From a virus, in UHGV virus genome UHGV-1528002: DNA of 36,070 nucleotides. One strand, 5' to 3'. This document shows, piece by piece, positions 1-36,070 of the stretch. Within the stretch, counting starts at the first letter, position 1; the number at the start of each line of letters is the position of its first letter. The notes beneath the pieces were generated by a model. It was given only the letters and a program-made list of their open reading frames with translations, had not been told where the DNA came from and searched no databases. The position numbers and the translations under genes were made by a program.

Positions 1-48
1 TTAACAGCTAACTCATAGCAAATCATTCCTATTCAGATGCCAACTCAA

Positions 49-79
49 CCCTCTGTTTTTGCAGAGGGTTTTTGTTTTT
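49..79 (+). terminator. Rho-independent terminator-like hairpin at the left prophage boundary
   Basis: CCCTCTG-tttttg-CAGAGGG followed by TTTTTGTTTTT; lies just outside the integrase promoter region, probably in or next to attL. Confidence 0.5.
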
Positions 80-192
80 ATGTATTCATTTCTATTCACT
101 CTACGCCATATTTTTCGGCGGTACAGGTGACGGTATTACCTTAAAGGTATACTCTCATACCGTCATGAAAATGGTTTCTATACGGGTGAATT

Positions 193-1443
193 GTGCTTAC
201 CGATACAAAATTAAAAAACCTCAAGCCGCAGGACAAACTGTACAAGGTCTCCGATCGTGACGGGCTGTATGTCGCTGTGCTTACGTCAGGCACGGTCTCG
301 TTTCGTTATGACTACCGTATCAACGGTCGCCGCGAAACACTGGTAATCGGGCAGTATGGGCGTGACGGTATCAGCCTGGCAGAAGCGCGAGAAGAACTGA
401 TTGCTGCAAAGAAGCTGCTTAAAGCAGGCCAGTCGCCGGCTGCGGCTAAACGTGACGGTATCAAAAAGATTCGTGGTGCCGAGACGTTTGCGGTACATAC
501 CGCCAGTTATATGAAACACGTCATCCTGGCTGAAAGTACCCGCGCAATGAAGCAGGCAGTGATCGACCGTGAAATACTTCCTGTTCTTGGCAACAAAATG
601 ATGACTGAAATTACCACATCGATGGTTCGTGATTTGTGTGACAGGATTGTCGAACGCGGTGGTCGGGCAACAGCAGTACAGGCCAGGGAGATCATCAGCA
701 GCGTATACCGTCACGCCAATGACCGTGGTCATGGTTTGTTTAATCCTGCGGCTGACATTAAACCTTCGTCTATCGCCATATTTAAACCACGAGAGCGAAC
801 ACTGACACCAGAAGAAATTGGCCTGTTCTTCCGCACGCTGGATGCCATTGGTGCTATGGGCACTATGAAAATGGCTTTAAAGCTGGTGCTTATCACTATG
901 GTTCGTAAAGGCGAATTCACCAACGCAACGTGGGATGAAATAGATTTTAAAAAATGGACATGGACAATTCCTTCAGACCGCATGAAGGGAAGCCGGGCGC
1001 ACGTTATTTACCTGCCTAAACAGGCACAGGATATATTGGTCGGGCTGCAGATGTGCGCTGGTGGAAGTGAATATCTGGTTCCTGGTCGTTACAACTTCCG
1101 GAAGCCATTATCTAATGCCGCGCTGAACTCTCTGATCGACAGAACGGTGAAAATAATAAATGAAAATGGTGAGCATATTCAGGACTTCACCGTACACGAT
1201 ATGCGCCGTACAGCCAGTACGTTATTGCATGAGGCTGGTTATCCTTCAGACTGGATTGAAAAGGCTCTGGCACATGAGCAGAAAGGTGTGCGCGCCGTAT
1301 ATAACAAAGCGGAATACGCCAGACAGCGCGCCTACATGTTGCAGCAGTGGGCCGATATGATTGATTCCTGGATTGACGGGGAGCATACGGATCTGATTCC
1401 GTTCTCCCCGTCGAAGTTTGAGAAATGGATGGCGGGGGAATAA
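193..1443 (+). CDS. int: Tyrosine integrase, P4/CP4-57 type (GTG start)
   Basis: N-terminus LTDTKLKNLKP...YKVSDRDGLYVAVLTSGTVSFRYDYR is the arm-binding domain signature of P4-type integrases; C-terminal catalytic region HDMRRTASTLLHEAGY...ALAH; sits at the prophage end. Confidence 0.85.
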   Translation: MLTDTKLKNLKPQDKLYKVSDRDGLYVAVLTSGTVSFRYDYRINGRRETLVIGQYGRDGISLAEAREELIAAKKLLKAGQSPAAAKRDGIKKIRGAETFAVHTASYMKHVILAESTRAMKQAVIDREILPVLGNKMMTEITTSMVRDLCDRIVERGGRATAVQAREIISSVYRHANDRGHGLFNPAADIKPSSIAIFKPRERTLTPEEIGLFFRTLDAIGAMGTMKMALKLVLITMVRKGEFTNATWDEIDFKKWTWTIPSDRMKGSRAHVIYLPKQAQDILVGLQMCAGGSEYLVPGRYNFRKPLSNAALNSLIDRTVKIINENGEHIQDFTVHDMRRTASTLLHEAGYPSDWIEKALAHEQKGVRAVYNKAEYARQRAYMLQQWADMIDSWIDGEHTDLIPFSPSKFEKWMAGE

Positions 1444-1446
1444 CGT

Positions 1447-1641
1447 TTAATTATTCTGCTGATTTTCTTCCATCTCGGCTTCTGCTGCCAGTGATTCAAT
1501 TTTATCTGCGAATATTGCTGACAGTGTTGCAAATTCAGCATCAGTGACAGCGGGAATTGGAACAAACCTGATCCCGCTGTGTGCAAGCATGTTTGCAGTT
1601 TCAAGGCATTTCCTTAAATCTGCTGGTGATGCCCTGTTCAT
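1447..1641 (-). CDS. Hypothetical small acidic protein (64 aa), last gene of the leftward operon
   Basis: ORF with ATGA start/stop overlap to the upstream methyltransferase gene; protein-like composition. Confidence 0.35.
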   Translation of the reverse strand: MNRASPADLRKCLETANMLAHSGIRFVPIPAVTDAEFATLSAIFADKIESLAAEAEMEENQQNN

Positions 1642-2288
1642 GCTGCACGCTCCCGCCCCTGGTTGTCTGTTGGTGACAGCGGAGAATTGCTGAATGCATT
1701 TGTTAATCCGCCAATATCCAACGCGTATCCGGGGTGTAGTTGCACTGCCGGGTCTTCACACTGATTACCCCAAACATCGAAGCCATGAGACGTCTGGCGG
1801 GCGAACAGTTCAATGCGAGAAACATCGCCTAACAATTGCACAAGTTTTTCACGAACGATATCTGGTTTTCTTGAGTGCTCAAGCCGCGGTGCGGTAAATG
1901 ACTGAACGATCCCTGCATTAATGCGCGTAGGTAGTTTTCCCTTTACTGCAAACAGGCAATCTTCACTATTGGCGCGAGTCATGTGTCCCATACCCATAAC
2001 CAGTTTATCTGGTTGTCGACTACCACATTTTATCCACGTGAAGCCCTTCATGGTCATCAGACGGAATCCCCAGGCTTCAACAACTTTTAGTGCTTCGAGT
2101 GGTTGTGTTGGCACCCACCACATGGCCAACAGACAGTTTTCATCGGCCAAATCCCACACAGGAAGGCGGCAGATATCCAGCACACTCATAACCGGATATT
2201 TAAAACCGGCACCGCGATTACCATCTGCGGCTTTGTCCCGGTATACCCAGGGTGGATCTGCATAGATTAGTGTGTATTTCTTAGTCAT
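1638..2288 (-). CDS. DNA N6-adenine methyltransferase, MT-A70 family
   Basis: LIYADPPW motif (DPPW catalytic motif IV) near the N-terminus; ATG at 2288 preceded by GGGGTGG RBS (the track's longer ORF starts at GTG 2300). Confidence 0.8.
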   Translation of the reverse strand: MTKKYTLIYADPPWVYRDKAADGNRGAGFKYPVMSVLDICRLPVWDLADENCLLAMWWVPTQPLEALKVVEAWGFRLMTMKGFTWIKCGSRQPDKLVMGMGHMTRANSEDCLFAVKGKLPTRINAGIVQSFTAPRLEHSRKPDIVREKLVQLLGDVSRIELFARQTSHGFDVWGNQCEDPAVQLHPGYALDIGGLTNAFSNSPLSPTDNQGRERAA

Positions 2289-2580
2289 AAACCACCCCAC
2301 AACATCCTATGCCGCTATAGTCGCCACGGCGAAGGCCGTTACCTTTTGTGATACATTGGTCCCTGCGAACCGCGATCCTTGCACGCTCAACATCACCAGA
2401 AGCAACATCCATACACTGAAGCCAAAGGTGAGCGGCAATGCGGAACTGCCCTTTTTTCTCTCTTTCAATCGCGCGTTTTTCGATCTCTATCGCCGCAGGA
2501 GTAACGGCGACAATCTTTGACGGACTGCGCATTGAAACCTTGTTCATGTGATATTTTTCAAGTCGGCTTAACTTTCTCAC
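2281..2580 (-). CDS. Hypothetical protein (start uncertain: GTG 2580 or internal ATG)
   Basis: ORF between excisionase and methyltransferase in the same operon; weak coding signal; 3' end overlaps the methyltransferase start. Confidence 0.3.
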   Translation of the reverse strand: MRKLSRLEKYHMNKVSMRSPSKIVAVTPAAIEIEKRAIEREKKGQFRIAAHLWLQCMDVASGDVERARIAVRRDQCITKGNGLRRGDYSGIGCCGVVYD

Positions 2581-2689
2581 TTAATCCAACCCTCTCTGAA
2601 AATTAATGCCAGCAGATAAAGCCATGCTGAAACAGAGGCCAGGAATAAGTACCATCCTGACCATTTGCTCCAGTGCCTTAGAAGCACAC

Positions 2690-2938
2690 TCATGCAGCGT
2701 TGCTCACAGGACGATATACACGTTGCTGAACCGGAGGCTTTTTACCCTGGAACTCTGCCGGGCTTGCTGCCTGACGTTCATCAAGCCAACGCTCAACTTC
2801 GTCACGGTTCCATGCGCAGCGTTTGTCAGTGATATACCAGCGTTTAGGAAATTCACCTGCGCGCTCCATACGGTCGATAGTGCTCCATGACAGTGGCACC
2901 ACCGCCAGGAGTTCCTTCTTACCTAATGCACCTTTCAT
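2690..2938 (-). CDS. Excisionase / AlpA-family DNA-binding protein
   Basis: LSWSTIDRMERAGEFPKRWYITDKRCAWNRDEVERWLDER matches the AlpA/Xis winged-helix pattern; small, integrase-proximal. Confidence 0.7.
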   Translation of the reverse strand: MKGALGKKELLAVVPLSWSTIDRMERAGEFPKRWYITDKRCAWNRDEVERWLDERQAASPAEFQGKKPPVQQRVYRPVSNAA

Positions 2939-2987: not shown

Positions 2988-3869
2988 TTACATAGATGTT
3001 TCGTTTAATTCTTCCCGACGAACGCTGTAAACGTCGGTGGCTTTTGCCAGCAGTTCGTCATCATCTGAAAGTTTTTGTGCAATGTATTTGTAAGCCTTAT
3101 CCAGTTCGGAGACAGTGCTGTAATTCATCGCTGCGCTGGTAAAGGCCATCAGCATTTCTTCTGGATCACGGCTATCCGCTTTACGCGTTTGCTCATCAGG
3201 CTTTTTCACTGGTTTAGCGTTGATCAGACTGTTCATTCCCGCAGCAGTAGTTGTTTGCGGAGTAATGTCTCGCTCAACGCGCGGTGCCGTTTCCTGTAAT
3301 TCGTCAGGGGTGTAAACACCAAGAAGTACATCAGGAGCGTGCAGGCGAGCCCATCGTTTCGTGCAAAGATAGGCAAGTTGCTGGCGCGGATCCTGTTCCC
3401 ACAATGGAGAGTTACGCACTCCGGCTTGCGCCATACTGATGGTAAGCTCACGTGGTTCTACTTCTCCTTTAAGAACTGCTGACACAGTTACCGTCAGATT
3501 CGGTGATTTATCTGTTTTGCCGTTAACATTCGACCAGTCACCGCTCCAGCGATAATTAAGGCGTGTCGCTAGCAGGCTGGAAGAGGATACGACCGCGTTT
3601 ACCAACTGTGCTTCGTAGCCTAACGTTCCGTTTACCACATGCGTTTTCTGCGCCACGGCGAAAGGGTTCATTCCCCACTGTGCCGCCTGCATGGTCACCG
3701 CCAGGCAATCGGCAGGTTTGCCTTCAAGATGTTTCGGTACAGTCGCTTTGCTTTGTGACATCAACTCCGCGAAACGCACCAGTTGATTCATGCCCTCGGG
3801 GCTGAAGATTGCCGCAGCAGTGCCTACAGTTGCGCCTGGTTGTGATGTGATTGCGATATCATTGCTCAT
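2988..3869 (-). CDS. Single-strand annealing recombinase, Red-beta/RecT superfamily
   Basis: Segments resembling lambda Bet (LAYLCTKRWARLHAPDVLLGVYTPDE, PRVERDITP); 4-nt overlap with the upstream exonuclease gene. Confidence 0.8.
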   Translation of the reverse strand: MSNDIAITSQPGATVGTAAAIFSPEGMNQLVRFAELMSQSKATVPKHLEGKPADCLAVTMQAAQWGMNPFAVAQKTHVVNGTLGYEAQLVNAVVSSSSLLATRLNYRWSGDWSNVNGKTDKSPNLTVTVSAVLKGEVEPRELTISMAQAGVRNSPLWEQDPRQQLAYLCTKRWARLHAPDVLLGVYTPDELQETAPRVERDITPQTTTAAGMNSLINAKPVKKPDEQTRKADSRDPEEMLMAFTSAAMNYSTVSELDKAYKYIAQKLSDDDELLAKATDVYSVRREELNETSM

Positions 3870-4687
3870 ACGTACATATCCTGTTTACGTGCCCAGTCAG
3901 GGCGTTTAATAATTTCCACTCCGCCCCATTCATCGTTGATGCGGCATTCGTGATAGGTATTCAGATCCCGGCGGAACAGAGCGTGCCCGGCATCGACATC
4001 TGGCGCATCCAGCTCGAACACGCGTACCGGATACCGACCACAATCAATGCTTTCGCTCACGGCAAGAAAGAAAAAACCATGCGGCTGACCAGTAACCCTC
4101 ATTGCGCCTTCGCGGTACATTGCGTCCTGCACGTGGTAGCGGAATTCCTCGATGTGGCGTGCAAAACGGTCCATATCTGCAACCTTTTTCACGTCGACGA
4201 TCACGTTGTGCTCGTTCAGCCATTTGTCTGGACGAATTCGGCACAACTCACCCGTCTCTTCATCGTTCCAGTACATTGATGCTTCGCAGTAACCAGGTGC
4301 TTCCAACATCCAGCGTGCCGCCGGATGAGCCATTGCGCTATCACGCATCAGCTCCAGTTTTCGCCACTGCTCGACATCAAGTACCGTAATACCCATATCC
4401 GCCACATCACGAAGAAATGCTTCTTCGTCAGCTTTACCTTGTTTTGTCCGACGATCGAATTTCGGTGAAACGATGAAGCGTTTGTCGAATTCTCCAGGTT
4501 CCAGAAGCAGGCAGTGCAATGCGGTTCCCATATCCAGTGCAGACTTTTTCTCTTCGTCTTCTGGTGCTGCCTGAACCCATTTAAGAAGCGCCGGATTCTT
4601 GGCAACCATGTCCAGTTGCGACTTACTCACGCCGTCACCTGCGTGGTAGTCTTCGTTGCTGATGTCGAAATAAATTCCCGGTTTCAT
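3866..4687 (-). CDS. Recombination exonuclease, PD-(D/E)XK family (RecE C-terminal-like)
   Basis: N-terminus MKPGIYFDISNEDYHAGDGVSKSQLD typical of the RecE-C-terminal-like nuclease fold; paired with the annealase gene as a RecET/Red-like module. Confidence 0.7.
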   Translation of the reverse strand: MKPGIYFDISNEDYHAGDGVSKSQLDMVAKNPALLKWVQAAPEDEEKKSALDMGTALHCLLLEPGEFDKRFIVSPKFDRRTKQGKADEEAFLRDVADMGITVLDVEQWRKLELMRDSAMAHPAARWMLEAPGYCEASMYWNDEETGELCRIRPDKWLNEHNVIVDVKKVADMDRFARHIEEFRYHVQDAMYREGAMRVTGQPHGFFFLAVSESIDCGRYPVRVFELDAPDVDAGHALFRRDLNTYHECRINDEWGGVEIIKRPDWARKQDMYV

Positions 4688-5291: not shown

Positions 5292-5876
5292 TTATTGTTT
5301 GTTTTTTTCGTTCTGGTTGATGACAAATTCAATGTAACTTTCGATCTTTGCTTTCTCGGTTTCGGGTAACAATGCGTAGCGCGAGCGGTCATAGTTGATG
5401 GTCGCAGGGTCGTGCGGGTGAATCAGTAATTCATAGCCGTGACGCCCGAATGCGGATGCAACATTCTCCAGGGTGGAAATGGAAACGCTGACCTCATTGT
5501 TTAACAGGCGGCTGATTGTCACCTGGGCGACGCCGGATGCGCGGTGAAGTTTTCCCTGAGTTGAAAGGTCGCGGCTTTCGCTCATCCAGCGTTCCAGGTT
5601 GTGAGCCGCCAGCTGACCAATGTCGCTTGGGCCGACAGGCTGAAAACCTTCCTGAGAAAGCGAGCGATCGATATCAAGCCAGTTACGTGGTTTATTGGCG
5701 GCAGCTTCAATTTTTCGCGCAACCTGGTCGCCGATAACCTTCTTGCCAAGAGCCCAGCGGTTTACCAGATTTGCCTGAGTTCCAAGTTTTTCTGCCATCC
5801 GCGTCTGAACACCATTGAATTCACGGTCGATCAAGTCGTTGAGATTTTGCCTGCGGACGTCCTGGATACTTTTCAT
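5292..5876 (-). CDS. Immunity repressor, tandem helix-turn-helix type, no recognisable autocleavage domain
   Basis: Two HTH-like segments (TRMAEKLGTQANLVNRWALGKK and HRASGVAQVTISRLLNNEVSVSISTLENVASAF); divergent from a Cro-like gene and flanked by palindromic operators; no Ala-Gly/Ser-Lys peptidase motif seen. Confidence 0.7.
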   Translation of the reverse strand: MKSIQDVRRQNLNDLIDREFNGVQTRMAEKLGTQANLVNRWALGKKVIGDQVARKIEAAANKPRNWLDIDRSLSQEGFQPVGPSDIGQLAAHNLERWMSESRDLSTQGKLHRASGVAQVTISRLLNNEVSVSISTLENVASAFGRHGYELLIHPHDPATINYDRSRYALLPETEKAKIESYIEFVINQNEKNKQ

Positions 5877-6030: not shown

Positions 6031-6261
6031 ATGAGCGATAACGGACATTTCGATTTCAAAAAGCACTGGCTTGCACTTACTCCGGATGAGCGTGAAGCCT
6101 TCGCACAGGAAGCCGGAACGACGAGTCACTATATCCAGACTCACTTAACAGGTAAGCGCAAAATGCCAGGTAATGTATTGATGGATGGGCTTTTTAAAGC
6201 CTGTAAATCAAGACAATGGCTGCGCTCAAAAGCAGAACTGGCATACTTCTTCTACTCATGA
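6031..6261 (+). CDS. Cro-like regulator, YdaS family
   Basis: 76 aa, divergent from the repressor; LTPDEREAFAQEAGTTSHYIQTHLTGKR resembles YdaS-type Cro-like HTH proteins. Confidence 0.6.
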   Translation: MSDNGHFDFKKHWLALTPDEREAFAQEAGTTSHYIQTHLTGKRKMPGNVLMDGLFKACKSRQWLRSKAELAYFFYS

Positions 6262-8261: not shown

Positions 8262-8276
8262 ATTACCTATCAGGTA
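8262..8276. promoter_or_regulatory. Operator palindrome TTACCTATCAGGTAA
   Basis: Exact consensus copy 48 bp upstream of the operator at 8324. Confidence 0.5.
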
Positions 8277-8295
8277 ACAAAATATTCTAAACTCT

Positions 8296-8338
8296 ATTGA
8301 TTTCGTGTCTTATGTGGTTTTTAATTACCTAAGAGGTA
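8296..8338 (+). promoter_or_regulatory. Promoter with overlapping operator for the DUF1064 gene
   Basis: TTGATT (8296-8301), 17 bp, TTTAAT (8319-8324), then TTACCTAAGAGGTAA (8324-8338) starting at the last T of the -10. Confidence 0.55.
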
Positions 8339-8342
8339 AATC

Positions 8343-8687
8343 ATGAGAAAACAGATACAGGCTCTTGGTCGACTCAAAACAGGCCAGATGAACAAAACAG
8401 AATCTGCGTATTGCCAGCACCTTGAGCTGCGTAAACGTGCAGGAGAAATCGTCTGGTATCGATTTGAGGGTATCAAGCTGCGGTTAGCTGACAACACGTT
8501 CTATACGCCCGATTTTGCTGTGATGCTCGCCACCGGCGAGATGGAACTGCACGAAGTGAAAGGTTTCTGGACCGACGACGCCAGGGTGAAAACCAAAGTC
8601 GCCGCAGATCAGTATCCGTTCCGAATCATCGGGGTAACGGTTAAACCAAAGAAAGCAGGTGGTGGCTGGAACATCGAAGAGTTCTGA
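8343..8687 (+). CDS. DUF1064-family phage protein (putative small nuclease/resolvase-like)
   Basis: 114 aa; pattern recalled as DUF1064 (GEIVWYRFEGIKLRLADNTFYTPDFAV...HEVKGFWTDDARVKTKV). Confidence 0.55.
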   Translation: MRKQIQALGRLKTGQMNKTESAYCQHLELRKRAGEIVWYRFEGIKLRLADNTFYTPDFAVMLATGEMELHEVKGFWTDDARVKTKVAADQYPFRIIGVTVKPKKAGGGWNIEEF

Positions 8688-8748
8688 ATCGACGATCTTT
8701 TTAGTTATCAATGTAATCAATAAGTTATGTGGATAAGCGAGGGTAAAG

Positions 8749-9249
8749 ATGGAAAGTAATATCAAAGGGTTAGTTTCCGCCGGGCATGAGATGGCTTCGG
8801 AACTGAAAGCAGAATGTGGTGCCGTTGATATGCGCAGTGTGGCAAAGCTGATCAGCGATTTGGCAACGCAACTGGAAGTGCAACTGGTGCGTGCTAATGC
8901 GCTGGCCGAAGACCACCAGAAAGCGATTGAGTCAATTAAGCAGGCTGATTCGGCTGTTAAGTTGGCACACGAGAAGTTTTCAGCGCTGGCGGCGGAGAAT
9001 GCTGGGCTGAAACATGCAATGGCTGTAACTCTTGAGCATGTGTCGGTCACGGATGCAGGGCAGGCTGGTGTTGCTGCAATGATTATCAACGATGCCCTAC
9101 ACCACAGCGAAACTCCAGCCACCGATGCTTTTCTGGCTGAAGTACGTGCGCAGGGCGTGGAGATGTTTGCGGAGTGTGCATACACACTTGAACATCATGA
9201 TCACGCAGTAGCTTTTGCCGCCGAGCTACGTGAAGGAGGCAACAAGTGA
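8749..9249 (+). CDS. Hypothetical phage protein (possibly Ea22-like)
   Basis: 166 aa, Ala/Glu-rich helical; GAGGG RBS. Confidence 0.5.
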   Translation: MESNIKGLVSAGHEMASELKAECGAVDMRSVAKLISDLATQLEVQLVRANALAEDHQKAIESIKQADSAVKLAHEKFSALAAENAGLKHAMAVTLEHVSVTDAGQAGVAAMIINDALHHSETPATDAFLAEVRAQGVEMFAECAYTLEHHDHAVAFAAELREGGNK

Positions 9250-9545: not shown

Positions 9546-9546
9546 T

Positions 9547-9945: not shown

Positions 9946-9946
9946 T

Positions 9947-10698: not shown

Positions 10699-10699
10699 T

Positions 10700-12112: not shown

Positions 12113-12139
12113 GCCGCCAACTATGGCGGCTTTATTTTG
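12113..12139 (+). terminator. Rho-independent terminator just upstream of the terminase genes
   Basis: GCCGCC-aactat-GGCGGC followed by TTTATTTTG. Confidence 0.6.
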
Positions 12140-12181
12140 CATGGTACTATTACCACAACGGTAACTATTACCAAGGTGGTT

Positions 12182-20229: not shown

Positions 20230-20235
20230 GCAGGA

Positions 20236-27292: not shown

Positions 27293-27293
27293 C

Positions 27294-28991: not shown

Positions 28992-31171
28992 TGGCAGCAA
29001 ACGAATTTTTGACGCAGTGCGAGCGCAGTGTAAATGCTGCCGCTGGTCGCGAGCTTTCTTCCGATGAGATGGAGTCGCTGGTGCGTGACATGAACGACAC
29101 CACTAGGCGAATTCTGGCGACCAATGAGGCGCTGTCTCTGGAAGAGGCCGCGATGCGCGCAGCGGAAGAACTGAGCAATGCCGATATGCTGGCAAAACAG
29201 ATTGAGGCTCGCAATAAGGCAATCAACGCCCGTATTGCCGCACAACGACTTAGAGAGCTTCGTACTATCTGGAAAGACCGCCCGGATATCGGGCTTGAAG
29301 CAATGCTGGTTGGCCGCAACGATGCGCGTATCGGCGCCCGCCGGTCGGTATCTTCGGAGGTGGCGCAACTGCGCGGCAAGTATCATTCCGGTATCAACTA
29401 CGATTTTGACCGTGCCGGGCTGGTGCAATTCATCGCCAGCGGCAGCAATGACCGGGAAATTGCCGATGCAATGTGGCGCATAGGGCGCGGGCAGTCAACT
29501 GACGGTATGACAAAGCAATCCGTAAGCGCTGCACAAATCATCATGAAATGGCAGGAAACTGCGCGTATTGATGAGAACCGCGCCGGGGCATGGATACGCA
29601 AAGAGCCGGGCTATATAGTGCGCCAGTCACACGACATCATGAAGATCCGCGCCGCAGGTTATGAAGCATGGCGAAATGCTATTCTCCCGCGCCTTGATGA
29701 GCGCACTTTTGACGGCGTGGCTGACCGCGAGCAGTTCATGCGTAACATTTATAACGGGCTGGCTTCCGGCGTGCATCTTACATCTGAAAAGCCCGATTGG
29801 ATGAATGGCTTTAAGGGATCGGCGAACGCAGCTAAACGCGCCAGCCAAGAGCGAATTTTGCACTTCAAAGATGGTATCTCGTGGCACGAGTACAACCAGC
29901 AATTCGGCACCGGCAGCCTGCGAGAAGCGCTGTTTGGTGGCTTAAACAGCGCTGCCCGCACAACGGGCATGATGCGCGTACTGGGCACTAACCCACAGAA
30001 CATGTTTAAGTACCTGACGGACACCATTGCTGAAGATATCAGCAAATCCGGAAGACCGGCAGCGTTGGCTGACTACATGACGAAGGTGCGTCGCATTAAC
30101 CGTACCGTAATGCCGCAGGTTGACGGCTCGCTAAATATTCCTGGCAGCGTAGGCTGGGCCAATGCGTCGGCGGCTGTACGCGGCTGGTTGCGTATGAGCC
30201 AGCTTGGTGGCGCGGTAATCTCATCGTTTAACGACGTGCCTATCGCCGCTACCGAGATGCGCTACCAAGGGCAGAATTTTATGCAGGCGTTGCTTGGTGC
30301 TATGAGAGGCCGCTTCACGCGTTACAACAGCGCGGAGCAGAAAGAGATCCTTTCCTCTAAGGGGATCAAGCCAACGCAGCGCGCTATCGCTGACGCACGC
30401 GATCAATTGGAAGGGCAGTTGCGCGGCTACATCCTTGACCGCCTGAATATCGCCATGTCAGAGCCTGGCGATCGCACGCAGGCGTTTATGAAGATGGGTA
30501 CGGTGCCAGGAACGGTGGCTGGGGAAGCAATACGATTCGCTGGTCAGTACAAATCGTTCACTGCAAGCTTCATGCAGAACGTGCTAGGACGCGAAGTATT
30601 CGGGCGTGGTTATATTCCTGCTGGGCTTGGTGAGTCGAAAACCGGATCGCTGACGAATGCGCTGCTACGTAACGGGAAGGGGGCTTTCCTTGGCGCTGCA
30701 AACCTCTTTGTCTGGGCGACTATGTTTGGTTATATCTCCATGCAGTCAAAACTCATGCTGAAAGGGCAAACACCACGCCCGGCAGATGCCAAGACGTTTC
30801 TCGCAGCCGCATCTCAGGGGGGCGGTCTTGGCATCTTGGGTGACTTCATGTTTGGCGAAGTCAATCGCATGGGGGCCGGGCCGGTTACGTCGCTAATGGG
30901 GCCGGCAGCATCGAACGCTGACAGCATTATCACGCTGCTCCAGCAGACCACGAGAGGGGATGCAGATTTGGGTGACTGGTATCGCACGGCACTTGACAAT
31001 ACGCCATTCCTCAACGTGTTCTGGCTTCGTACGGCGATGAATGGTTTAATATTGAACCGGATACAAGATGCCCTTGACCCAGGCTCTCTTGAGCGTTATC
31101 AGCGCCGTGTTGAGCGTGAGCAGGGTAACGAATTTCTGATCCCACCATCGCAGTTCATGCTAGGGAAGTAA
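28988..31171 (+). CDS. Internal virion/ejection protein (large)
   Basis: 727 aa, last large gene before the accessory island; ATGA overlap with the upstream gene. Confidence 0.5.
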   Translation: MMAANEFLTQCERSVNAAAGRELSSDEMESLVRDMNDTTRRILATNEALSLEEAAMRAAEELSNADMLAKQIEARNKAINARIAAQRLRELRTIWKDRPDIGLEAMLVGRNDARIGARRSVSSEVAQLRGKYHSGINYDFDRAGLVQFIASGSNDREIADAMWRIGRGQSTDGMTKQSVSAAQIIMKWQETARIDENRAGAWIRKEPGYIVRQSHDIMKIRAAGYEAWRNAILPRLDERTFDGVADREQFMRNIYNGLASGVHLTSEKPDWMNGFKGSANAAKRASQERILHFKDGISWHEYNQQFGTGSLREALFGGLNSAARTTGMMRVLGTNPQNMFKYLTDTIAEDISKSGRPAALADYMTKVRRINRTVMPQVDGSLNIPGSVGWANASAAVRGWLRMSQLGGAVISSFNDVPIAATEMRYQGQNFMQALLGAMRGRFTRYNSAEQKEILSSKGIKPTQRAIADARDQLEGQLRGYILDRLNIAMSEPGDRTQAFMKMGTVPGTVAGEAIRFAGQYKSFTASFMQNVLGREVFGRGYIPAGLGESKTGSLTNALLRNGKGAFLGAANLFVWATMFGYISMQSKLMLKGQTPRPADAKTFLAAASQGGGLGILGDFMFGEVNRMGAGPVTSLMGPAASNADSIITLLQQTTRGDADLGDWYRTALDNTPFLNVFWLRTAMNGLILNRIQDALDPGSLERYQRRVEREQGNEFLIPPSQFMLGK

Positions 31172-31172: not shown

Positions 31173-31544
31173 ATGAACAGAATTATATTAATGATTATTC
31201 TTATGCTTTTAGTTGTAAAATCTTTTGCAGATACTACCTCACCGTTAATGATTCAGCCTAAAAATGGGGAAACACTGGAGGATTCTAAAAAGCATACAAT
31301 GGAATATTTTGGATGTATAAAAGGGCAGGCCGTAAAATACGCTAAGACAGGAGAAAGTGTTGATTCTATATCCAAAGCTTCGGTTGTGTCATGCGAGTCG
31401 TACATACAAAAGATTGCTGAATCAAATATATACTATTTAAATTCCTCTCAAGACGGTAAGCGGAAATTTATTGGAAGGCTTAAATCAGATGGTGAAAATT
31501 TAGCAACAAAATTTGCTATGGATGAAAAGCTAAAAAATAAATAG
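31173..31544 (+). CDS. Small secreted protein (signal peptide, 2 Cys), AT-rich moron
   Basis: N-terminal hydrophobic signal MNRIILMIILMLLVVKSFA then polar mature region; very AT-rich codon usage; starts 1 nt after the ejection-protein stop. Confidence 0.5.
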   Translation: MNRIILMIILMLLVVKSFADTTSPLMIQPKNGETLEDSKKHTMEYFGCIKGQAVKYAKTGESVDSISKASVVSCESYIQKIAESNIYYLNSSQDGKRKFIGRLKSDGENLATKFAMDEKLKNK

Positions 31545-31552
31545 GTGACTAC

Positions 31553-31849
31553 ATGCAAGCGATAGGATTCATTGTTTATATCGTCGTTGGTCTTTTTCAG
31601 TTGGCAGCAATTATGGCTGGGCTTGAATCATGGTGGGGATTGCACTGGATAATTGCAGCCCCCATTGCTTTCATCGTGAGCTATATTCCATTTGTTGGAG
31701 CGATTGTTGGTATGGTTGGCGCTGTGGATGTATGGCGGTGGGAGTGGTGGCAGGCTGGCCTTCTCTTCTTTGGTGGGATCATCTTTGCTATTGTCTGCGG
31801 TGGAATGTCATCATTTTTCGAATGGCTATCATTCAGAAAAAGAGTGTGA
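31553..31849 (+). CDS. Small integral membrane protein (3 predicted TM helices)
   Basis: 98 aa with three hydrophobic stretches and a basic C-terminus (FRKRV); AGGTGA RBS. Confidence 0.5.
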   Translation: MQAIGFIVYIVVGLFQLAAIMAGLESWWGLHWIIAAPIAFIVSYIPFVGAIVGMVGAVDVWRWEWWQAGLLFFGGIIFAIVCGGMSSFFEWLSFRKRV

Positions 31850-32141: not shown

Positions 32142-32774
32142 TTAATGCAGTTTATCTTTGCTTATAACCAGTAGTCTGTGGGTATGCACATCTTTATCAC
32201 TGCCCCAACAGAAATCAGCCCACTGGCTATAGAAATCATCCCATGATGTCATGAAGCTAAGAGGTCTATCTTCTTCAGAGCCATCTGAAACGTATACATT
32301 ATATCCCGGGGTGTTTATAGCCCAAGAAATCATTCTTTCCCAGAATCTTCTCCCATCGATTGTTTGTTGCTCATCAGATACAACGATCGCATATTGCTCT
32401 AGGAAGAACTGAAAAAAAATCTGAGGCAAACCATGAACAGCACGGTCATGAATAACATTAGGCGTACGCCATACCATGATCTGCGTACATGTTCTTTTGG
32501 CTTCGACGATATCTTCCCGAAAGATTAACTTAACCGCATACACCGTTTCTGGAGTATCGCTGGTAGTAATCATTCTGTAATGATCGCCATTACAAGATTT
32601 TACAAGGCGATAACCATAAGGTGTTGTGAATCCCGGAAGAACGAAATCAACCACACCTTTCGCTAAGTAGCTTTCGGTGTGACTAGTGTTCTTCTCAGAC
32701 ATGTTCAGTTTTCTATCGAAATCTGCTTCTGGGATAATGTATGGCATCGCTTTTCTTGTTGTATTTGTTCTCAT
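32142..32774 (-). CDS. Hypothetical protein (210 aa) under an operator-controlled promoter
   Basis: Strong GGGAGGA RBS; AT-rich; no recognised domain; promoter with overlapping operator immediately upstream. Confidence 0.6.
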   Translation of the reverse strand: MRTNTTRKAMPYIIPEADFDRKLNMSEKNTSHTESYLAKGVVDFVLPGFTTPYGYRLVKSCNGDHYRMITTSDTPETVYAVKLIFREDIVEAKRTCTQIMVWRTPNVIHDRAVHGLPQIFFQFFLEQYAIVVSDEQQTIDGRRFWERMISWAINTPGYNVYVSDGSEEDRPLSFMTSWDDFYSQWADFCWGSDKDVHTHRLLVISKDKLH

Positions 32775-32833
32775 TTCGTCCTCCCATGTTTGGCTACAGG
32801 ACGCGTTTTGAAGGGAAGATTAAAAATGCTTTC

Positions 32834-32876
32834 TTACCCTTGAGGTAATAGTACGCTATTCACCCCCAGTCTGCAA
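32834..32876 (-). promoter_or_regulatory. Promoter with overlapping operator for the 210-aa gene
   Basis: Minus strand TTGCAG (plus 32871-32876), 17 bp, TACTAT (plus 32848-32853), then TTACCTCAAGGGTAA (plus 32834-32848) starting at the last T of the -10. Confidence 0.55.
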
Positions 32877-32919
32877 TCTGTACAGAATTATTTAAAGGCA
32901 CGTCCCTGTGCCGCCGCCG

Positions 32920-33606
32920 TCAGAAGAACCCTGCCTTGTCGTTGATGTACTCCGCGTGGGTCTGGATATCACGCAGGCATTTACTCACACCGACGATGTA
33001 GCAGAACATGGTGGTCAGTTCCGCCGCCGCGCCCGATACGTCATGCCCGTCTTCCTGTAACTGGTTCAGCAAATTCATCAGCAGTGAGTTCTCCGTCAGG
33101 CCGAGAACACCAGACGGCGAATGAATCAGGCTGCGGTAGCCGGGCTTCAGCGGGGCACTGTAGGTTTTGTTCTCTATCTTCATCGCCTGCATCACTGCTG
33201 ATGCTGTGGCGTTTGCAACCTGGTCGGCAACCATCTTTATGCGTTCTTCCTGCGGGAGCGAGTTTTTAATGTAACTTCCGGTGCGGCGGATCTGAGGAAG
33301 AACCTCACCTGTAACCCATTTACGAAAGCGGTAGGGGATAGTGCCTGGTGTCACCGCATCGCGGCAGCGGAGGATCAGTGTGTAGAGGCCTGACTCGCTG
33401 ATAATATTGGTTTCGCCTTGACGACCTAAGTTAAATTTAGCCCTTTCATCATCATCAAGAGATTTGATTGACATGGTGGGGTTTGTCAGTTGAAGAGCTT
33501 TAATAACGTCTTTGGCAACAAACCAAGGATTTCCATCAATAACAATGGCTCGAATGGTTGCTTCTGATTCAAAATGAAAAACAGATGGGGTTACGTTAGC
33601 AGTCAT
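32920..33606 (-). CDS. Antirepressor, BRO-N domain with KilAC-like C-terminal domain
   Basis: N-terminal FHFESEATIRAIVIDGNPWFVAKDVIKALQL...IISESGLYTLILRC is the BRO-N pattern; ATG 33606 behind AAGGTGA RBS; C-terminal 75 aa are paralogous to the small gene at 34757-35014. Confidence 0.8.
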   Translation of the reverse strand: MTANVTPSVFHFESEATIRAIVIDGNPWFVAKDVIKALQLTNPTMSIKSLDDDERAKFNLGRQGETNIISESGLYTLILRCRDAVTPGTIPYRFRKWVTGEVLPQIRRTGSYIKNSLPQEERIKMVADQVANATASAVMQAMKIENKTYSAPLKPGYRSLIHSPSGVLGLTENSLLMNLLNQLQEDGHDVSGAAAELTTMFCYIVGVSKCLRDIQTHAEYINDKAGFF

Positions 33607-33762
33607 GGCAATCACCTTTTAGTATGGTTAATCACCACCTGAGGTGCAAATCTCGTTGGTGGTGAGACGTACAGGGTTTGCACTACCGGCTAAAAGGACC
33701 CGGCGCACCTTTCGGTGCCCCTGCACGTCCCACCATAATTCTGGCATGACTGTGCTATACGC

Positions 33763-33784
33763 ATAAAAAAACCACGTCTGGCGT
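33763..33784 (-). terminator. Terminator-like hairpin inside the antirepressor 5' leader
   Basis: Minus strand CCACG-ccaga-CGTGG followed by TTTTTTT, about 160 nt upstream of the antirepressor start. Confidence 0.45.
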
Positions 33785-33877
33785 GGTATGCGCCTTTTAG
33801 TAATCCGGGGTGCAAATCCCGGCACTGGATTTTGCCAGTGCTCAATTACTATGGCACAAGAGGAGTGCGATGTAAAT

Positions 33878-33921
33878 TTACCGCAAAGGTAATGATAAAC
33901 GCTGATAAATATAAAAATCAA
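33878..33921 (-). promoter_or_regulatory. Leftward promoter with overlapping operator driving the antirepressor leader
   Basis: Minus strand TTGATT (plus 33916-33921), 18 bp, TATCAT (plus 33892-33897), then TTACCTTTGCGGTAA (plus 33878-33892) starting at the last T of the -10. Confidence 0.5.
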
Positions 33922-33970
33922 CCGTATTTGGTTGATTGCGTTTAACGCTTGATCACCTGAAAGCAAGATA

Positions 33971-33985
33971 TTACCTTTAAGGTAA
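33971..33985. promoter_or_regulatory. Operator palindrome TTACCTTTAAGGTAA
   Basis: Exact consensus copy 21 bp upstream of the ATG of the membrane zinc-ribbon gene. Confidence 0.5.
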
Positions 33986-34005
33986 TGTTATTGTGAGGAA
34001 AAGCA

Positions 34006-34734
34006 ATGGAAGTTTTCTGGATAGTTGTTGGTGTGGTTGCGGTGATTATTTACGTTATCAACCAGAACAAGACTAAGATCTCTGATCGTACGGTCGTTAA
34101 TCATAACAAAACGATAAAGACCGAAGATGGGGAGATAACGATTAATCGTACACAGGTGATAGAACACACCTCTACTCAGTTTCAAAAAACTGGAGGTAAT
34201 GCGCCTAATATTTCCGCACCTCCTGCTTATGATAGTGCGGTAATCCAGACATATTATAAACAGCAGGAGTTAGCAAAAGAGAGGCAACTGATTCAGCCAA
34301 AGCCGTTTACAGCTGAGCTTCCACCTGGAGTGTCAACGCGTCCGGCATATCATGGAAGATTCCCTGGTGATGACATATCGTCTCAGTCATCTAAAAAAGC
34401 ACCTCAGGCAGTATCAGAGCCAGCAAGAATACCTTCTGTATCGCCGCCAAAAGAAGAATCAGCTAACAGAGTTTCAAGTGGTAGCAAGCAGTGCTTGCGA
34501 TGCAGAATAAACCTTCCATATGAAAAATTCAGGAAATCGTCAAAAAATCCAGATGGATTGACTAAGTGGTGTGCAAGGTGTCTCGATGGCCCAAAGAATA
34601 CACGCCATATGAAGTGGTGCCCAATTTGTAATGTCCGCAGAAAACGAACCAGCTTTTACCCTAATAATCAAAATGCGGACGGCTTAATGGCATGGTGCAA
34701 AACGTGCTGGGATGAGCACAAAGCGAAACGATAG
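34006..34734 (+). CDS. Membrane-anchored protein with tandem C-terminal zinc ribbons
   Basis: N-terminal TM helix (VFWIVVGVVAVIIYVI), low-complexity linker, two repeats of CxxC...NPDGL..WCxxC; GAGGAAAA RBS. Confidence 0.55.
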   Translation: MEVFWIVVGVVAVIIYVINQNKTKISDRTVVNHNKTIKTEDGEITINRTQVIEHTSTQFQKTGGNAPNISAPPAYDSAVIQTYYKQQELAKERQLIQPKPFTAELPPGVSTRPAYHGRFPGDDISSQSSKKAPQAVSEPARIPSVSPPKEESANRVSSGSKQCLRCRINLPYEKFRKSSKNPDGLTKWCARCLDGPKNTRHMKWCPICNVRRKRTSFYPNNQNADGLMAWCKTCWDEHKAKR

Positions 34735-34756: not shown

Positions 34757-35014
34757 TTACCGGGTTTGTTTTCGTAATTGTTCGGCACAATAGTCGAGAT
34801 GTGTTTGCAGATCCTGCATAGACATCTGTGAGCTGGTGACGTAGTTAATCAGTGCAGTCAGTTCGGCAAGTGGGCCATCGACATTAAATCCATCCTTATC
34901 GAGATCCCGGAGTAATTTCATCAAGTGCGATCCCTCCACCAGTGATCTGACGCCTCCCGGCGTGTGAATCCTTTCGGTAAATCCGTCTTCCAGTGGATAG
35001 TGATACTGCTGCAT
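34757..35014 (-). CDS. Small KilAC-like protein (stand-alone antirepressor C-domain paralog), candidate SOS-induced antirepressor
   Basis: ATG 35014 behind GGAGAAG RBS (the track's longer ORF begins at TTG 35032); about 40% identity to the C-terminus of the BRO-N antirepressor (e.g. IHTPGGV / IHSPSGV, AELT, DLQTH / DIQTH); LexA box 22 bp upstream. Confidence 0.55.
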   Translation of the reverse strand: MQQYHYPLEDGFTERIHTPGGVRSLVEGSHLMKLLRDLDKDGFNVDGPLAELTALINYVTSSQMSMQDLQTHLDYCAEQLRKQTR

Positions 35015-35033
35015 CTTATCTTCTCCATGCAAT

Positions 35034-35053
35034 AACTGTATAAATATACAGTA
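35034..35053. promoter_or_regulatory. LexA (SOS) box
   Basis: AACTGTATAAATATACAGTA: CTGT-N8-ACAG with AT-rich spacer, 18 of 20 matches to TACTGTATATATATACAGTA. Confidence 0.75.
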
Positions 35054-35090
35054 TCAAATAATTTGTTTGCTATCCAGCACGTTTTGCAAA

Positions 35091-35105
35091 TTACCTGAAA
35101 GGTAA
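35091..35105. promoter_or_regulatory. Operator palindrome TTACCTGAAAGGTAA
   Basis: Exact consensus copy in the divergent region between the small KilAC-like gene and the tail-fibre gene. Confidence 0.5.
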
Positions 35106-35209
35106 TATCTATTCATATTCACAGTCTTTCTATCCATATGTGGTTTTTCAGGTAATAGAATAACCAGATATGCGGCGCAACGGGTGCTGCGACTATCTGG
35201 AGATTTAAC

Positions 35210-36070
35210 ATGACGGTCTCAACCGAAGTTGACCACAACGAATACACAGGTAACGGCGCTACGACATCATTTCCGTATACCTTCCGTATTTTCAAAAAAT
35301 CCGACCTGGTTGTTCAGGTGTCTGACCTGAACGGGAACGTAACAGAATTGGTTCTGGATACCGGTTATACGGTAACTGGGGCGGGCACTTATAGTGGCGG
35401 TTCTGTGGTTCTTCCGTCGCCGCTTGCTGCTGGCTGGCGAATTACGATAGATCGTGTGCTTGATGTGGTGCAGGAGACAGACCTTCGCAATCAGGGAAAG
35501 TTTTTCCCCGAAGTGCATGAGGATGCCTTTGACTATCTGACGATGCTGATCCAGCAATGTTTTGGGTGGTTCAGACGTGCATTGATGAAGCCCTCTCTGC
35601 TTGCAAAATATTACGATGCAAAGCAAAACAGAATTTCTAACCTTGCAGATCCATCACTTGAGCAGGATGCTGTAAATAATCGCTCAATGCGTAATTATGT
35701 CGATGCTGCAATCGCCGGGGTTGTTGGTGGTTTTGGTTGGTTTATTCAGTATGGTTCTGGAGCAGTATACCGAACGTTCCAGGATAAGATGAGAGATATC
35801 GTCAGTGTTAGCGATTTTGGTGCAAAGGGAGATGGAATAACTGATTCTACGGAGGCGTTCTCTAATGCAGGCCACAGAGCGTTTGTTCCTAATGGCGATT
35901 TTGCAGTAAATACTCTCGAAGTTGATGTATCTTCTGTTCAAGGTATTGGGAGGATTGTTGCTGATAATGGATCTCTTATTTCAGTTTCTCGTCTACTTGA
36001 AACTGACAAACTTGTGCAGAGAAAAATGATGGAACCTTTTTTTGGTTTTCAGGGAGAAACAAACACAGAA
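35210..36070 (+). CDS. Tail fibre/tailspike, N-terminal part (CDS continues beyond the window)
   Basis: Open frame from ATG 35210 (GGAG RBS) to the window end with no stop; N-terminus MTVSTEVDHNEYTGNGATTSFPYTFRIFKKSDLVV resembles the conserved tail-attachment domain of T7-like fibres; DFGAKGDGITDST suggests the start of a beta-helix enzymatic domain. Confidence 0.7.
   Translation, partial: MTVSTEVDHNEYTGNGATTSFPYTFRIFKKSDLVVQVSDLNGNVTELVLDTGYTVTGAGTYSGGSVVLPSPLAAGWRITIDRVLDVVQETDLRNQGKFFPEVHEDAFDYLTMLIQQCFGWFRRALMKPSLLAKYYDAKQNRISNLADPSLEQDAVNNRSMRNYVDAAIAGVVGGFGWFIQYGSGAVYRTFQDKMRDIVSVSDFGAKGDGITDSTEAFSNAGHRAFVPNGDFAVNTLEVDVSSVQGIGRIVADNGSLISVSRLLETDKLVQRKMMEPFFGFQGETNTE

Follow-up and report, generated by a model that had tools for sequence, protein, structure and literature searches.

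The 36,070-nucleotide virus genome UHGV-1528002 (the window, that is, the whole stretch of DNA analysed) is very probably about 92% of an epsilon15/phiV10-type (Uetakevirus-like) temperate podophage prophage that sits next to guaA, is cut in its tailspike gene, and holds its late units under the prophage repressor Rep. It is an already described kind of Escherichia coli prophage, in which lambda-like early genes combined with distantly T7-like tail genes are a long-standing trait of the lineage. An earlier note on this DNA had read it as a mosaic of lambdoid and T7-like modules. The two-part look stands, given the early layout and the T7 gene order, but a fresh fusion with T7 does not, the structural proteins being of a non-T7 lineage.

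Identity and integration site

Whole-genome comparison with temperate podoviruses, a check that the earlier note had proposed, found colinear relatives of the epsilon15/phiV10 type. Gene by gene, up to the end of the window, the order is that of phiV10, epsilon15, PAS61, TL-2011b and Tyrion; the order common to the group is int, early-left genes, Rep/cro, replication, terS-terL, portal to ejection proteins, ant, tailspike, and conversion and lysis genes. Megablast against phage records aligned window 1-25000 with Escherichia phage vB_EcoP_PAS61 at 86% coverage and 97.7% identity, with further matches to phiv142-3, HEMP4, TL-2011b and ZX5, and phiV10 matched the late half at 98%. Identity to all of these phages, which are isolated and inducible, is mostly 96-98%, and many E. 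coli prophages match as well: 49 complete E. coli genomes cover at least 80% of window 15000-36070, and 1218 of 5426 have some part of this stretch. By blastn, 64-65% of the whole, truncated window aligned with PAS61 and phiV10 at ~97%, and 85% aligned with an unclassified E. coli prophage. Epsilon15, phiV10, Tyrion and a Klebsiella prophage have the same arrangement, with DNA identities of 74-98%, which argues for an old lineage and against a new fusion.

The prophage is entered at its left end:

1..192, plus strand: left prophage end (attL side / attP arm), starting with TTAACAGCTAAC and holding an operator-like site at 136-150

The start of the window matches PAS61 from position 103. In the Klebsiella relative its first sequence, TTAACAGCTAAC, directly follows the stop codon of guaA, and in E. 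coli AREA_486 the prophage element as a whole lies between an integrase and yfgI. Phage ZX5 integrates at the 3' end of guaA (PMC9782041). From the Klebsiella junction and the ZX5 site it follows that the window is a prophage read from its left end and cut in the tailspike. The Klebsiella record, examined as a possible independent context, carries the same type of prophage.

The Rep/Ant switch and its operators

The genes and the site that make up the switch are:

5292..5876, minus strand: prophage repressor Rep, two helix-turn-helix (HTH) regions, no peptidase domain (PDB 5d50_A; Pfam HTH_3 only)
6031..6261, plus strand: cro-like small regulator, divergent from Rep (phrog_35 transcriptional repressor, E 3.5e-12)
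34757-35014, minus strand: antirepressor Ant, 85 amino acids (aa) (PDB 5d50_E, the SPC32H anti-repressor, E 4.1e-47, residues 2-84 of 85)
35036-35051, minus strand: perfect LexA box CTGTATAAATATACAG (CTGT-N8-ACAG), 22 nt upstream of the ant start, kept in epsilon15

Rep matches the SPC32H repressor (5d50_A) at E 4e-42 over residues 1-190 of 194, and its C-terminal oligomerisation part matches 5d4z_A at E 4e-20. Pfam found HTH only, and no S24 peptidase domain, in the window repressor. The ant gene sits between the ejection-protein genes and the tailspike. From the sequence ant is predicted to be under LexA control, and by homology the switch is of the SPC32H Rep/Ant type, not one of lambda CI autocleavage. 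Of the CI/Cro-type switch proposed earlier, the divergent HTH repressor and the cro-like gene remain, but the repressor belongs to an SPC32H-type Rep/Ant pair and is not CI.

Rep is a tetramer when bound to DNA, and tetrameric Ant releases it (PMC9638917). In ZX5, over-expression of the repressor abolished free phage and lowered the holin and endolysin transcripts by >99.9%, and over-expression of the anti-repressor favoured the lytic cycle (PMC9782041). From these papers, the Rep/Ant homology and the LexA box, we infer that induction runs from LexA through Ant to Rep, without CI autocleavage. DNA damage would remove LexA and let Ant be made; Ant would then take the Rep tetramer off its operators, and every Rep-controlled unit would be derepressed.

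The putative Rep operator, the palindrome TTACC-N5-GGTAA, occurs in 15 copies at one mismatch or fewer against 0.6 expected (0 of 100 shuffles reached 15), all of them intergenic:

136-150, unstranded: before int
5158 and 5220, unstranded: pair at the leftward early promoter, with a promoter-like site at 5200-5172 (minus) and a terminator at 5271-5252 (minus)
5932 and 5980, unstranded: pair at the rightward early promoter, with a promoter-like site at 5977-6005 (plus) and a terminator at 6283-6302 (plus)
6317, unstranded: after the cro terminator
8263 and 8325 (8263..8339), plus strand: pair 62 bp apart, bracketing a promoter-like site, before the DUF1064/resolvase-like gene
12113..12182, plus strand: terminator hairpin 12113-12130, then operators 12150 and 12168, which abut the likely terS start at 12185
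15359-15373, plus strand: before the portal operon
32834, 33878 and 33971, unstranded: moron region
35091-35105, plus strand: before the tailspike

The epsilon15 RefSeq record NC_004775.2 annotates repressor-binding sites at the same places, with a site and a terminator at the equivalent of 12113..12182; the operator network is thus already known at the level of annotation. Five relatives keep the operators in the same positions, the half-sites being conserved and the spacers free to vary, and a further one precedes the lysis cassette in epsilon15 and phiV10. One repressor appears, from the placing of these putative sites, to join both halves of the genome into one regulon, and such a tie between the halves argues against two juxtaposed prophages.

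The pairs 5158/5220 and 8263/8325 bracket early promoters at a centre-to-centre spacing of exactly 62 bp, or about six turns of the helix. The portal unit has, at 15421, the stretch TGGTTAAATTGGTAA with one GGTAA half-site, again 62 bp away from the full operator at 15359. A 62-bp spacing would fit looping by a Rep tetramer.

Late units and lysis genes

The earlier note had seen no phage RNA polymerase, Q-like antiterminator or lysis cassette in the window, and in this it was right. Pfam, PHROGs and the comparison with T7 matched no holin, endolysin, spanin, RNA polymerase or Q family protein in the window; Pfam and PHROGs matched no N or Q family protein among its proteins; and no T7 gp1-type RNA polymerase is among its open reading frames, all the long ones being assigned to other families. 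The search for lysis genes beyond the window, made through the relatives, located a holin-endolysin-Rz/Rz1 cassette after the tailspike. In PAS61, TL-2011b, phiV10, epsilon15, Tyrion and the AREA_486 prophage the order is tailspike, conversion gene (missing in AREA_486), two holin-like genes, endolysin, Rz/Rz1 and right end, and the window stops ~3 kb short of the cassette position. The question of the lysis genes is therefore answered: they lie outside the window.

The late region consists of several units, namely terS-terL behind the terminator at 12113-12130, a portal-to-ejection operon at ~15440-31857, a tailspike unit from ~35160, and a lysis unit outside the window. We infer that these genes need neither a phage RNA polymerase nor Q and that each late unit would have its own host-polymerase promoter under Rep. 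The features on which this rests are:

15359..15440, plus strand: portal-operon control region, Rep operator and late element AATCATATGTGGTT-N7-TAATAA (15412-15438), kept in epsilon15, Tyrion and the Klebsiella prophage
35132-35158, plus strand: late element ATCCATATGTGGTT-N7-TAATAG before the tailspike (by pattern and relatives)
11536..11877, plus strand: conserved 112-aa regulator, candidate late activator (phrog_536 transcriptional regulator), with a predicted beta-alpha-alpha N-terminal part and a Cys-rich C-terminal part

The late element reads (A)AYCATATRTGGTT, then exactly 7 nt, then TAATAA, TAATAG or TATAAT/TATGAT. It lies upstream of the portal and tailspike units and in relatives also of the lysis unit, where its version, AACCATATATGGTT, is a perfect palindrome; a full Rep operator stands 30-45 bp further upstream. 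The window has two matches to ATRTGGTT-N7-TA, where 0.11 would be expected. In six genomes the element was found only before the portal, tailspike and lysis units, plus one stray match, and the Klebsiella prophage has it too. A consensus promoter scan called no promoter at the late elements, and their -35 regions are poor. The element suggests a class of activator-dependent late promoters held under Rep, in which a phage activator may read the AACCATATATGGTT-like palindrome seven bases upstream of a -10-like hexamer that has no good -35. CRP and IHF sites were considered for the palindromes and dropped, the sequences fitting neither consensus.

The likeliest late activator is possibly the 112-aa regulator, the last conserved gene of the early-right operon, just before terS. 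It corresponds to epsilon15 gp49 and phiV10 gp55 and has 726 homologues, with at least 77% identity among the 120 matches listed and invariant Cys residues. A tblastn search in phages returned mainly the same phage group and, distantly, N15 and Yersinia, Klebsiella and Vibrio phages, with no functional clue. PerC, encoded at 2281-2580 among the early-left genes, is a second candidate.

In phage P1 a C4 antisense RNA precedes an ant-type gene, repressor sites are scattered, and late promoters have an inverted repeat upstream of the -10. A P1-like late logic is put forward tentatively for epsilon15-type phages: in every late unit a 14-bp AACCATATATGGTT-like palindrome centred near -25 would replace the -35 and be read by a phage activator, all of it subject to the genome-wide Rep network, with the 12-bp palindrome GTGACATGTCAC as a further control or recombination site. 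Pure derepression is a serious rival to the activator model, if itself somewhat improbable. It holds that the late units come on solely by loss of Rep at sigma-70 promoters, with no activator, and that CATATGTGGTT is part of the promoter or a weak looping Rep site. A Rep operator does stand before every late unit, the early promoters have their operator pairs (5158/5220, 8263/8325) at the same 62 bp that separates the half-site in TGGTTAAATTGGTAA from the full portal operator, and the fall of >99.9% in ZX5 lysis transcripts under excess repressor (PMC9782041) is in its favour. The poor -35 regions and the failure of the consensus scan to call a late promoter tell the other way. So does the element itself, a separate and almost perfect palindrome of 14 bp that does not resemble the Rep site (its lysis-unit form is AACCATATATGGTT) and that stands at a fixed 7 bp from the -10-like hexamer in three units of six genomes, and so does the conserved regulator gene that ends the early-right operon.

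No description of this late promoter class, or of late transcription in the group, was found in the literature searched (the epsilon15 genome and SPC32H papers lay outside it). Novelty is conceivable only for the late-promoter element and the 12-bp palindrome. The late-operon motifs provide a testable handle on late timing in a temperate podophage with neither Q nor its own polymerase, and could help in the engineering of phiV10 reporter phages. As a discovery the rest carries little weight, since epsilon15/phiV10-like temperate podophages, serotype conversion, the Rep/Ant switch and a distant T7 ancestry of tail and ejection proteins are already published. Its use is as a correction: the T7-like label is to be read remotely, and the switch as driven by LexA and Ant instead of CI autocleavage.

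How T7-like is the virion module

The late half keeps the T7 gene order from gp8 to gp17, that is, portal, (scaffold/protease), capsid, adaptor, nozzle, internal proteins and tailspike:

12104-14250, plus strand: terminase small (Terminase_2) and large subunits, likely terS start 12185 (Pfam PF03592; phrog_2)
15464-15670, plus strand: small protein called gp6.7-like in the earlier note, no Pfam match
15685-17364, plus strand: portal (Pfam PF12236, E 1.5e-187, 624 bits; T7 gp8, 379 bits)
within 15464..20565, after the portal, plus strand: Bbp19-like protein of the head module (Pfam)
17654-18355, plus strand: scaffold/'protease', 233 aa, between portal and capsid (phrog_458; 'protease' from PHROG and RefSeq names only)
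18370-19356, plus strand: major capsid protein, epsilon15 gp7 type (PF20911, E 2.1e-149; T7, PF21703)
within 15464..20565, after the capsid, plus strand: Bbp16-like cement protein (PF21190, E 4.7e-47)
within 15464..20565, before the hairpin, plus strand: gp9-like protein of the head module
20210-20228, plus strand: hairpin GGGGC-TTCG-GCCCC, then TTTATT, between the gp9-like and gp10-like genes, after the capsid gene block
after the hairpin, ending at 20565, plus strand: gp10-like staple/cement (PF21628, E 1.2e-51)
20565..23641, plus strand: tail adaptor (gp11 fold) and nozzle (remote gp12 relative) (PDB 8ck1_E and 8ck1_A, Carin-1; 9efk, LME-1)
23641..31171, plus strand: internal virion (ejection) proteins, namely IVP-A-like (IVP, internal virion protein), T7_gp14 family, 873-aa SLT, 565-aa, and 726-aa gp17/IVP-D-like (phrog_308, phrog_418, phrog_342, phrog_684)
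35210..36070, plus strand: tailspike gene, cut by the window end (PHROG tailspike families)

Ten structural and packaging proteins of T7 were scanned with Pfam, and only gp8 (PF12236) and gp14 (PF24072) share a family above threshold with their window counterparts. The T7 capsid, scaffold and terminase match PF21703 (Gp10A-like), PF05396 (Phage_T7_Capsid) and PF22530; the window counterparts match PF20911, nothing and nothing. Pairwise comparison of 18 window proteins with 19 T7 proteins (phmmer, blastp) gave nothing significant, and NCBIfam had no family for ten structural or regulatory proteins. The Pfam set of the head module 15464..20565 is PF12236, PF25181, PF20911, PF21190 and PF21628. 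TerL matched no T7 gp19 family, by Pfam or pairwise, and a PDB sequence search with it came back empty; the scaffold/'protease' matched neither the T7 scaffold family nor any peptidase family in Pfam and NCBIfam. Hardies et al. 2016 (PMC4819975) placed the epsilon15 terminase and capsid with their siphovirus counterparts, and the non-T7 families of the window capsid and scaffold and its unmatched terminase agree with that study of the epsilon15 group. Some of the earlier assignments in the head region are borne out: the terminase genes (12104-14250) do precede the portal, the portal is of the T7 gp8 family, and a terminator-like hairpin with a T-run, at 20210-20228, follows the capsid block. 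Others are not. The scaffold has the expected place between portal and capsid but falls in a PHROG protease family with no Pfam match, a T7-type capsid gives way to epsilon15 GP7, and the gp6.7-like protein has no similarity to T7 gp6.7. At the spot equivalent to 20210-20228 epsilon15 has annotated terminators. The hairpin may be an attenuator that lowers the expression of tail relative to capsid genes.

The tail is closer to T7 in mechanics than in sequence. The AlphaFold2 model of the adaptor has a mean predicted local distance difference test score (pLDDT) of 86 and by Foldseek finds Carin-1 with a template modelling (TM) score of 0.83, also LME-1, and then many podophage adaptors including T7 gp11 (E 8e-6, TM 0.58-0.60, 12% identity); when the adaptor family was aligned with T7 gp11 by hhalign, no signal appeared (E 0.91). 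The nozzle matches Carin-1 8ck1 at E 3e-215, and its profile aligns weakly with T7 gp12 residues 351-466 (hhalign, P 2.9e-4, 112 columns), a stretch inside the region reported as conserved by Hardies et al. (PMC4819975). T7 gp11 and gp12 were not reached when the adaptor and nozzle profiles were searched against the PDB with hmmsearch, and neither protein had a Pfam match, so that they are not in the T7 families PF17212 and PF25675. The adaptor and nozzle thus work like gp11 and gp12, yet are not members of their families by sequence; the tail tubular A/B of the earlier note can be kept in the sense of a gp11 fold and a weak gp12 profile match, not as T7 family names. The nozzle gene (21170-23641) belongs to a large family, with 18,261 cluster representatives at E <= 0.001 among 1.84 billion and 9,124 at E <= 1e-30, many members having an additional 80-300 residues that follow the N-terminal part and precede residue ~300.

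Internal virion proteins with a transglycosylase, as the earlier note had them, are present: there are four to five, and the 873-aa protein has the SLT transglycosylase domain (PF01464). The 188-aa protein at 24105 is in PF24072 (T7_gp14) with 32.9 bits against a cut-off of 27 (T7 gp14 scores 160 bits). A PDB sequence search found nothing for the IVP-D-like protein, and in the epsilon15 group no IVP-C homologue could be confirmed (PMC4819975). The window and the isolated phages have different alleles in segments 25089-31171 and most of 31.2-34.7 kb; the AREA_486 prophage shares those of the window at 97%.

The T7-type N-terminal domain that had been ascribed to the tail fibre did not hold up. 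The tailspike scored 19.9 bits against Pfam Phage_T7_tail (PF03906), below the cut-off of 25.2, over 27 residues at profile positions 123-149, and hhalign of its N-terminus with that of T7 gp17 gave E 0.14. Its N-terminal 160 aa are nearly invariant among Uetakevirus tailspikes, and a pectate-lyase-like part starts at aa 198 (beta-helix PF12708, 21.7 bits). After ~residue 196 (35797-36070) it departs from the K1-endosialidase-type spike of AREA_486, from which it follows that the receptor specificity of the window copy differs.

The lineage of the structural proteins had been singled out beforehand as the point that would decide about T7, and the outcome was divided: order and mechanics are T7-like, the lineage, with its epsilon15, BPP-1, Carin-1 and LME-1 matches, is not. 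By family assignment the virion module is of the epsilon15/BPP-1/Carin-1 lineage. Order and the mechanics of tail and ejectosome match and most families differ, so that "T7-like" is right for the former and not for family membership.

Points against the assignment and other explanations

Several observations weigh against the assignment to an epsilon15/phiV10-type prophage with its late units under Rep. Coverage times identity against the classified phages PAS61 and phiV10 is ~0.62 by blastn, which falls below the genus rule of the International Committee on Taxonomy of Viruses (a genome-wide nucleotide similarity of 70% or more to a member); those two phages have different alleles of the ejection-protein genes (25.1-31.2 kb) and of the moron region; and the window is truncated inside the tailspike gene. 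The gp17/IVP-D-like gene (28991-31171) has a private in-frame deletion of 369 bp (123 aa) at 30359/30360, a junction with ~2 nt of microhomology. At least 80% of the deletion-junction query is held by 61 complete E. coli genomes, and in all eight matches listed the query aligned as two pieces 369 bp apart, so that the extra 369 bp are present there. The deletion may impair the ejection protein or the function of this copy, or the assembly may have lost the segment. On the regulatory side, that Rep binds the TTACC-N5-GGTAA sites, where the promoters lie and what the late element does are predictions from the DNA; the late-unit operator lies ~67-79 bp upstream of the start predicted from the -10-like hexamer, a distance at which simple occlusion is not evident. 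The AlphaFold2 model of the 112-aa regulator has a pLDDT of 59.9 and found no Foldseek match below E 3, so no fold is assigned to it.

Two other explanations were weighed for the window as a whole, and both are very improbable. According to the first, which is that of the earlier note, a lambdoid prophage recently took the head, tail and ejection genes of a T7-like phage (Autographiviridae). The gene order that mirrors T7 gp8 to gp17, the portal and gp14-like protein in the T7 gp8 and gp14 Pfam families and the gp11 fold of the adaptor are all as a chimera would have them, but pairwise comparison with the T7 counterpart was not significant for any structural protein, Pfam gave eight of the ten scanned T7 proteins no family in common with their window counterparts above threshold, and the capsid and scaffold/'protease' are of other families and the terminase without a T7 family match. 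Moreover, the full arrangement recurs, with 74-98% identical DNA, in epsilon15, phiV10, Tyrion and the Klebsiella prophage, and the operators of one repressor span both halves. The other explanation, that two unrelated prophages lie next to each other as a defective composite, could draw on the cut inside the tailspike, the private 369-bp deletion in the IVP-D-like gene, the 200-bp insertion after the regulator gene and a second Ant-like module with C4 and isrK RNAs between tail genes. It is hard to reconcile with a single integrase and a single left end, with long reading frames that are all open, with the same operator and 12-bp palindrome in both halves, and with colinearity of the whole window to plaque-forming or inducible phages of 39-45 kb (including PMC9782041); no second integrase or att site, and no bacterial genes, were seen between the halves. 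The assignment to the epsilon15/phiV10 group is preferred to both.

Early genes

193..1443, plus strand: tyrosine integrase with P4-type arm-binding domain (Pfam PF13356 (Arm-DNA-bind_3), PF00589 (Phage_integrase), PF22022)
1447..2938, minus strand: early-left accessory genes, namely DUF1382, MT-A70 adenine methylase, PerC-like activator and AlpA-like regulator/excisionase (PF07131, PF05063, PF06069, PF05930; phrog_868)
2988-3869, minus strand: RecT annealing protein (Pfam; the pair 2988..4687 gives PF03837 and PF12684)
3866-4687, minus strand: PDDEXK (RecE-like) exonuclease (Pfam)
6628-7443, plus strand: replication initiator with HTH_36 and DnaT domains (Pfam PF13730, PF17948)
7425-8225, plus strand: lambda P family helicase loader (PF06992, E 1.5e-56)
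8343..11546, plus strand: variable nin-like region with DUF1064, Ead/Ea22-like, DUF7739, HNH/NinG-like, DUF551 and ASCH-like genes (Pfam, PHROGs)
8343-8687, plus strand: DUF1064/resolvase-like gene (phrog_190)

The integrase named in the earlier note is confirmed by its Arm-DNA-bind_3 and Phage_integrase matches. Its Red-like recombination and O/P replication are each half right: there is a recombination module, but its RecT and PDDEXK exonuclease make it RecET-like and not lambda Red (relatives annotate RecT and exonuclease VIII), and there is a P protein, but the initiator has HTH_36 and DnaT domains with no Phage_rep_O match. Many Stx (Shiga toxin) and other lambdoid phages have DNA segments of the early half. 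Segment 9001-11264 is another allele than in the isolated phages, not shared with PAS61 or phiV10 but shared at 97% by the AREA_486 prophage.

Moron regions, RNAs and the 12-bp palindrome

11874-11885, 14325-14336 and 31846-31857, unstranded: palindrome GTGACATGTCAC, copies a, b and c
11887-12087: 200-bp insertion with most of a 77-aa open reading frame (phrog_1541), between the regulator gene and the terminator before terS
14341-14760, minus strand: moron gene (phrog_4846)
14960-15036, minus strand: tRNA-Arg (anticodon TCT, rare AGA codon), between terL and the portal operon (ARAGORN, Rfam)
31173..31849, plus strand: two small envelope proteins at the operon end (translations; phrog_3075 for the second, a 98-aa membrane protein)
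32142..34734, unstranded: moron or second immunity-like region with a 210-aa gene (minus), an Ant-like gene, RNAs and a 242-aa gene (plus) (phrog_130)
32920-33615, minus strand: Bro-N Ant-like gene (Pfam Bro-N)
33655-33740, minus strand: C4 antisense RNA (Rfam gathering-level, 77.8 bits)
33765-33841, minus strand: isrK Hfq-binding RNA (Rfam gathering-level, 67.4 bits)
34006-34734, plus strand: 242-aa protein with an N-terminal membrane helix and C-terminal zinc-finger repeats like endonuclease VII / Lar-like (phrog_6762)

The three exact copies of GTGACATGTCAC, against 0.15 expected, lie at the ends of three plus-strand operons, beside terminator hairpins and just before variable moron DNA; a fourth site, 17413-17424, has one mismatch. 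PAS61, phiV10, epsilon15 and Tyrion have perfect copies at the same three places and TL-2011b at two, and the flanks diverge. The insertion at 11887-12087 is absent from PAS61, TL-2011b, phiV10, epsilon15, O157 typing phage 10 and the AREA_486 prophage. O157 typing phage 10, AREA_486 and the Klebsiella prophage have the tRNA-Arg annotated as well. The first envelope protein (31173-31544, 123 aa) has a signal-like N-terminus and belongs to no PHROG or Pfam family. The C4 and isrK RNAs are directly upstream of the Bro-N gene and are flanked by the putative Rep operators at 33878 and 33971; the 242-aa gene is also preceded by a putative Rep operator. The C4/isrK/Bro-N locus looks like a second antirepressor module, similar to P1 immI or that of Gifsy-1, beside the SPC32H-type ant.

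Comparison with known systems

With lambda and the Stx-type lambdoid phages the window shares the layout of integrase, recombination, repressor/cro, replication and nin region, a lambda P family protein, and Ead/Ea22-, NinG-like and DUF551 genes. It differs from lambda in having a DnaT-domain initiator in place of O and RecET in place of Red, in having no N, Q or S24-type CI, and in the position of the lysis genes, which in its relatives come after the tail genes. The likeness to SPC32H Rep-Ant (PDB 5D50) extends over full-length Rep, the Ant match, the LexA box before ant and the palindromic operators, all judged by sequence; the Bro-N type Ant-like gene with its C4 and isrK RNAs is additional in the window. 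Shared with P1 are the C4 RNA before an ant-type gene (Rfam), scattered repressor sites and a palindrome just upstream of the -10, and the window operator is symmetric, unlike that of P1.

T7 (Autographiviridae) and the window are alike in the order of the virion genes, PF12236, PF24072, the adaptor fold, a weak nozzle similarity and an SLT domain in an ejected protein, which in the window is another protein. The window is temperate, lacks the RNA polymerase and T7 replication genes, has other capsid and scaffold families and a terminase that matches no T7 family, places the terminase genes before the portal, and has Bbp19-like, Bbp16-like and gp10-like proteins that T7 is without. The closest solved tail parts are in the group of Bordetella BPP-1, Cobetia Carin-1 (8CK1) and Legionella LME-1 (9EFK), with the Carin-1 nozzle at E 3e-215 and the connector at TM 0.83; Bbp16- and Bbp19-like proteins are common to this group and the window. 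These phages have other hosts and other early regions, and the LME-1 nozzle is far more distant (E 1e-15).

Epsilon15, the type of the group, whose capsid was solved by cryo-electron microscopy, has the architecture of the window, a capsid of Pfam GP7, a Gp10-like staple, repressor sites annotated at equivalent places and three GTGACATGTCAC copies. Its DNA is only 72-81% identical, over ~39% of the window, and its replication, methylase and serotype-conversion genes are different. Nearest are phiV10, PAS61, phiv142-3, TL-2011b, ZX5 and the AREA_486 prophage. The catalytic part of the tailspike, the 200-bp insertion at 11887-12087 and the 369-bp deletion in the gp17-like gene set the window apart from the phiV10/PAS61-type phages, and its ejection genes (25.1-31.2 kb) and moron region are of an allele that differs from the isolated phages and is the same in AREA_486. 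Common to them all are the order from int to tailspike and 96-98% DNA identity in the shared parts, and the phiV10/PAS61-type phages and AREA_486 have, with the window, the Rep operators, the late elements, the tRNA-Arg and the 12-bp palindromes.

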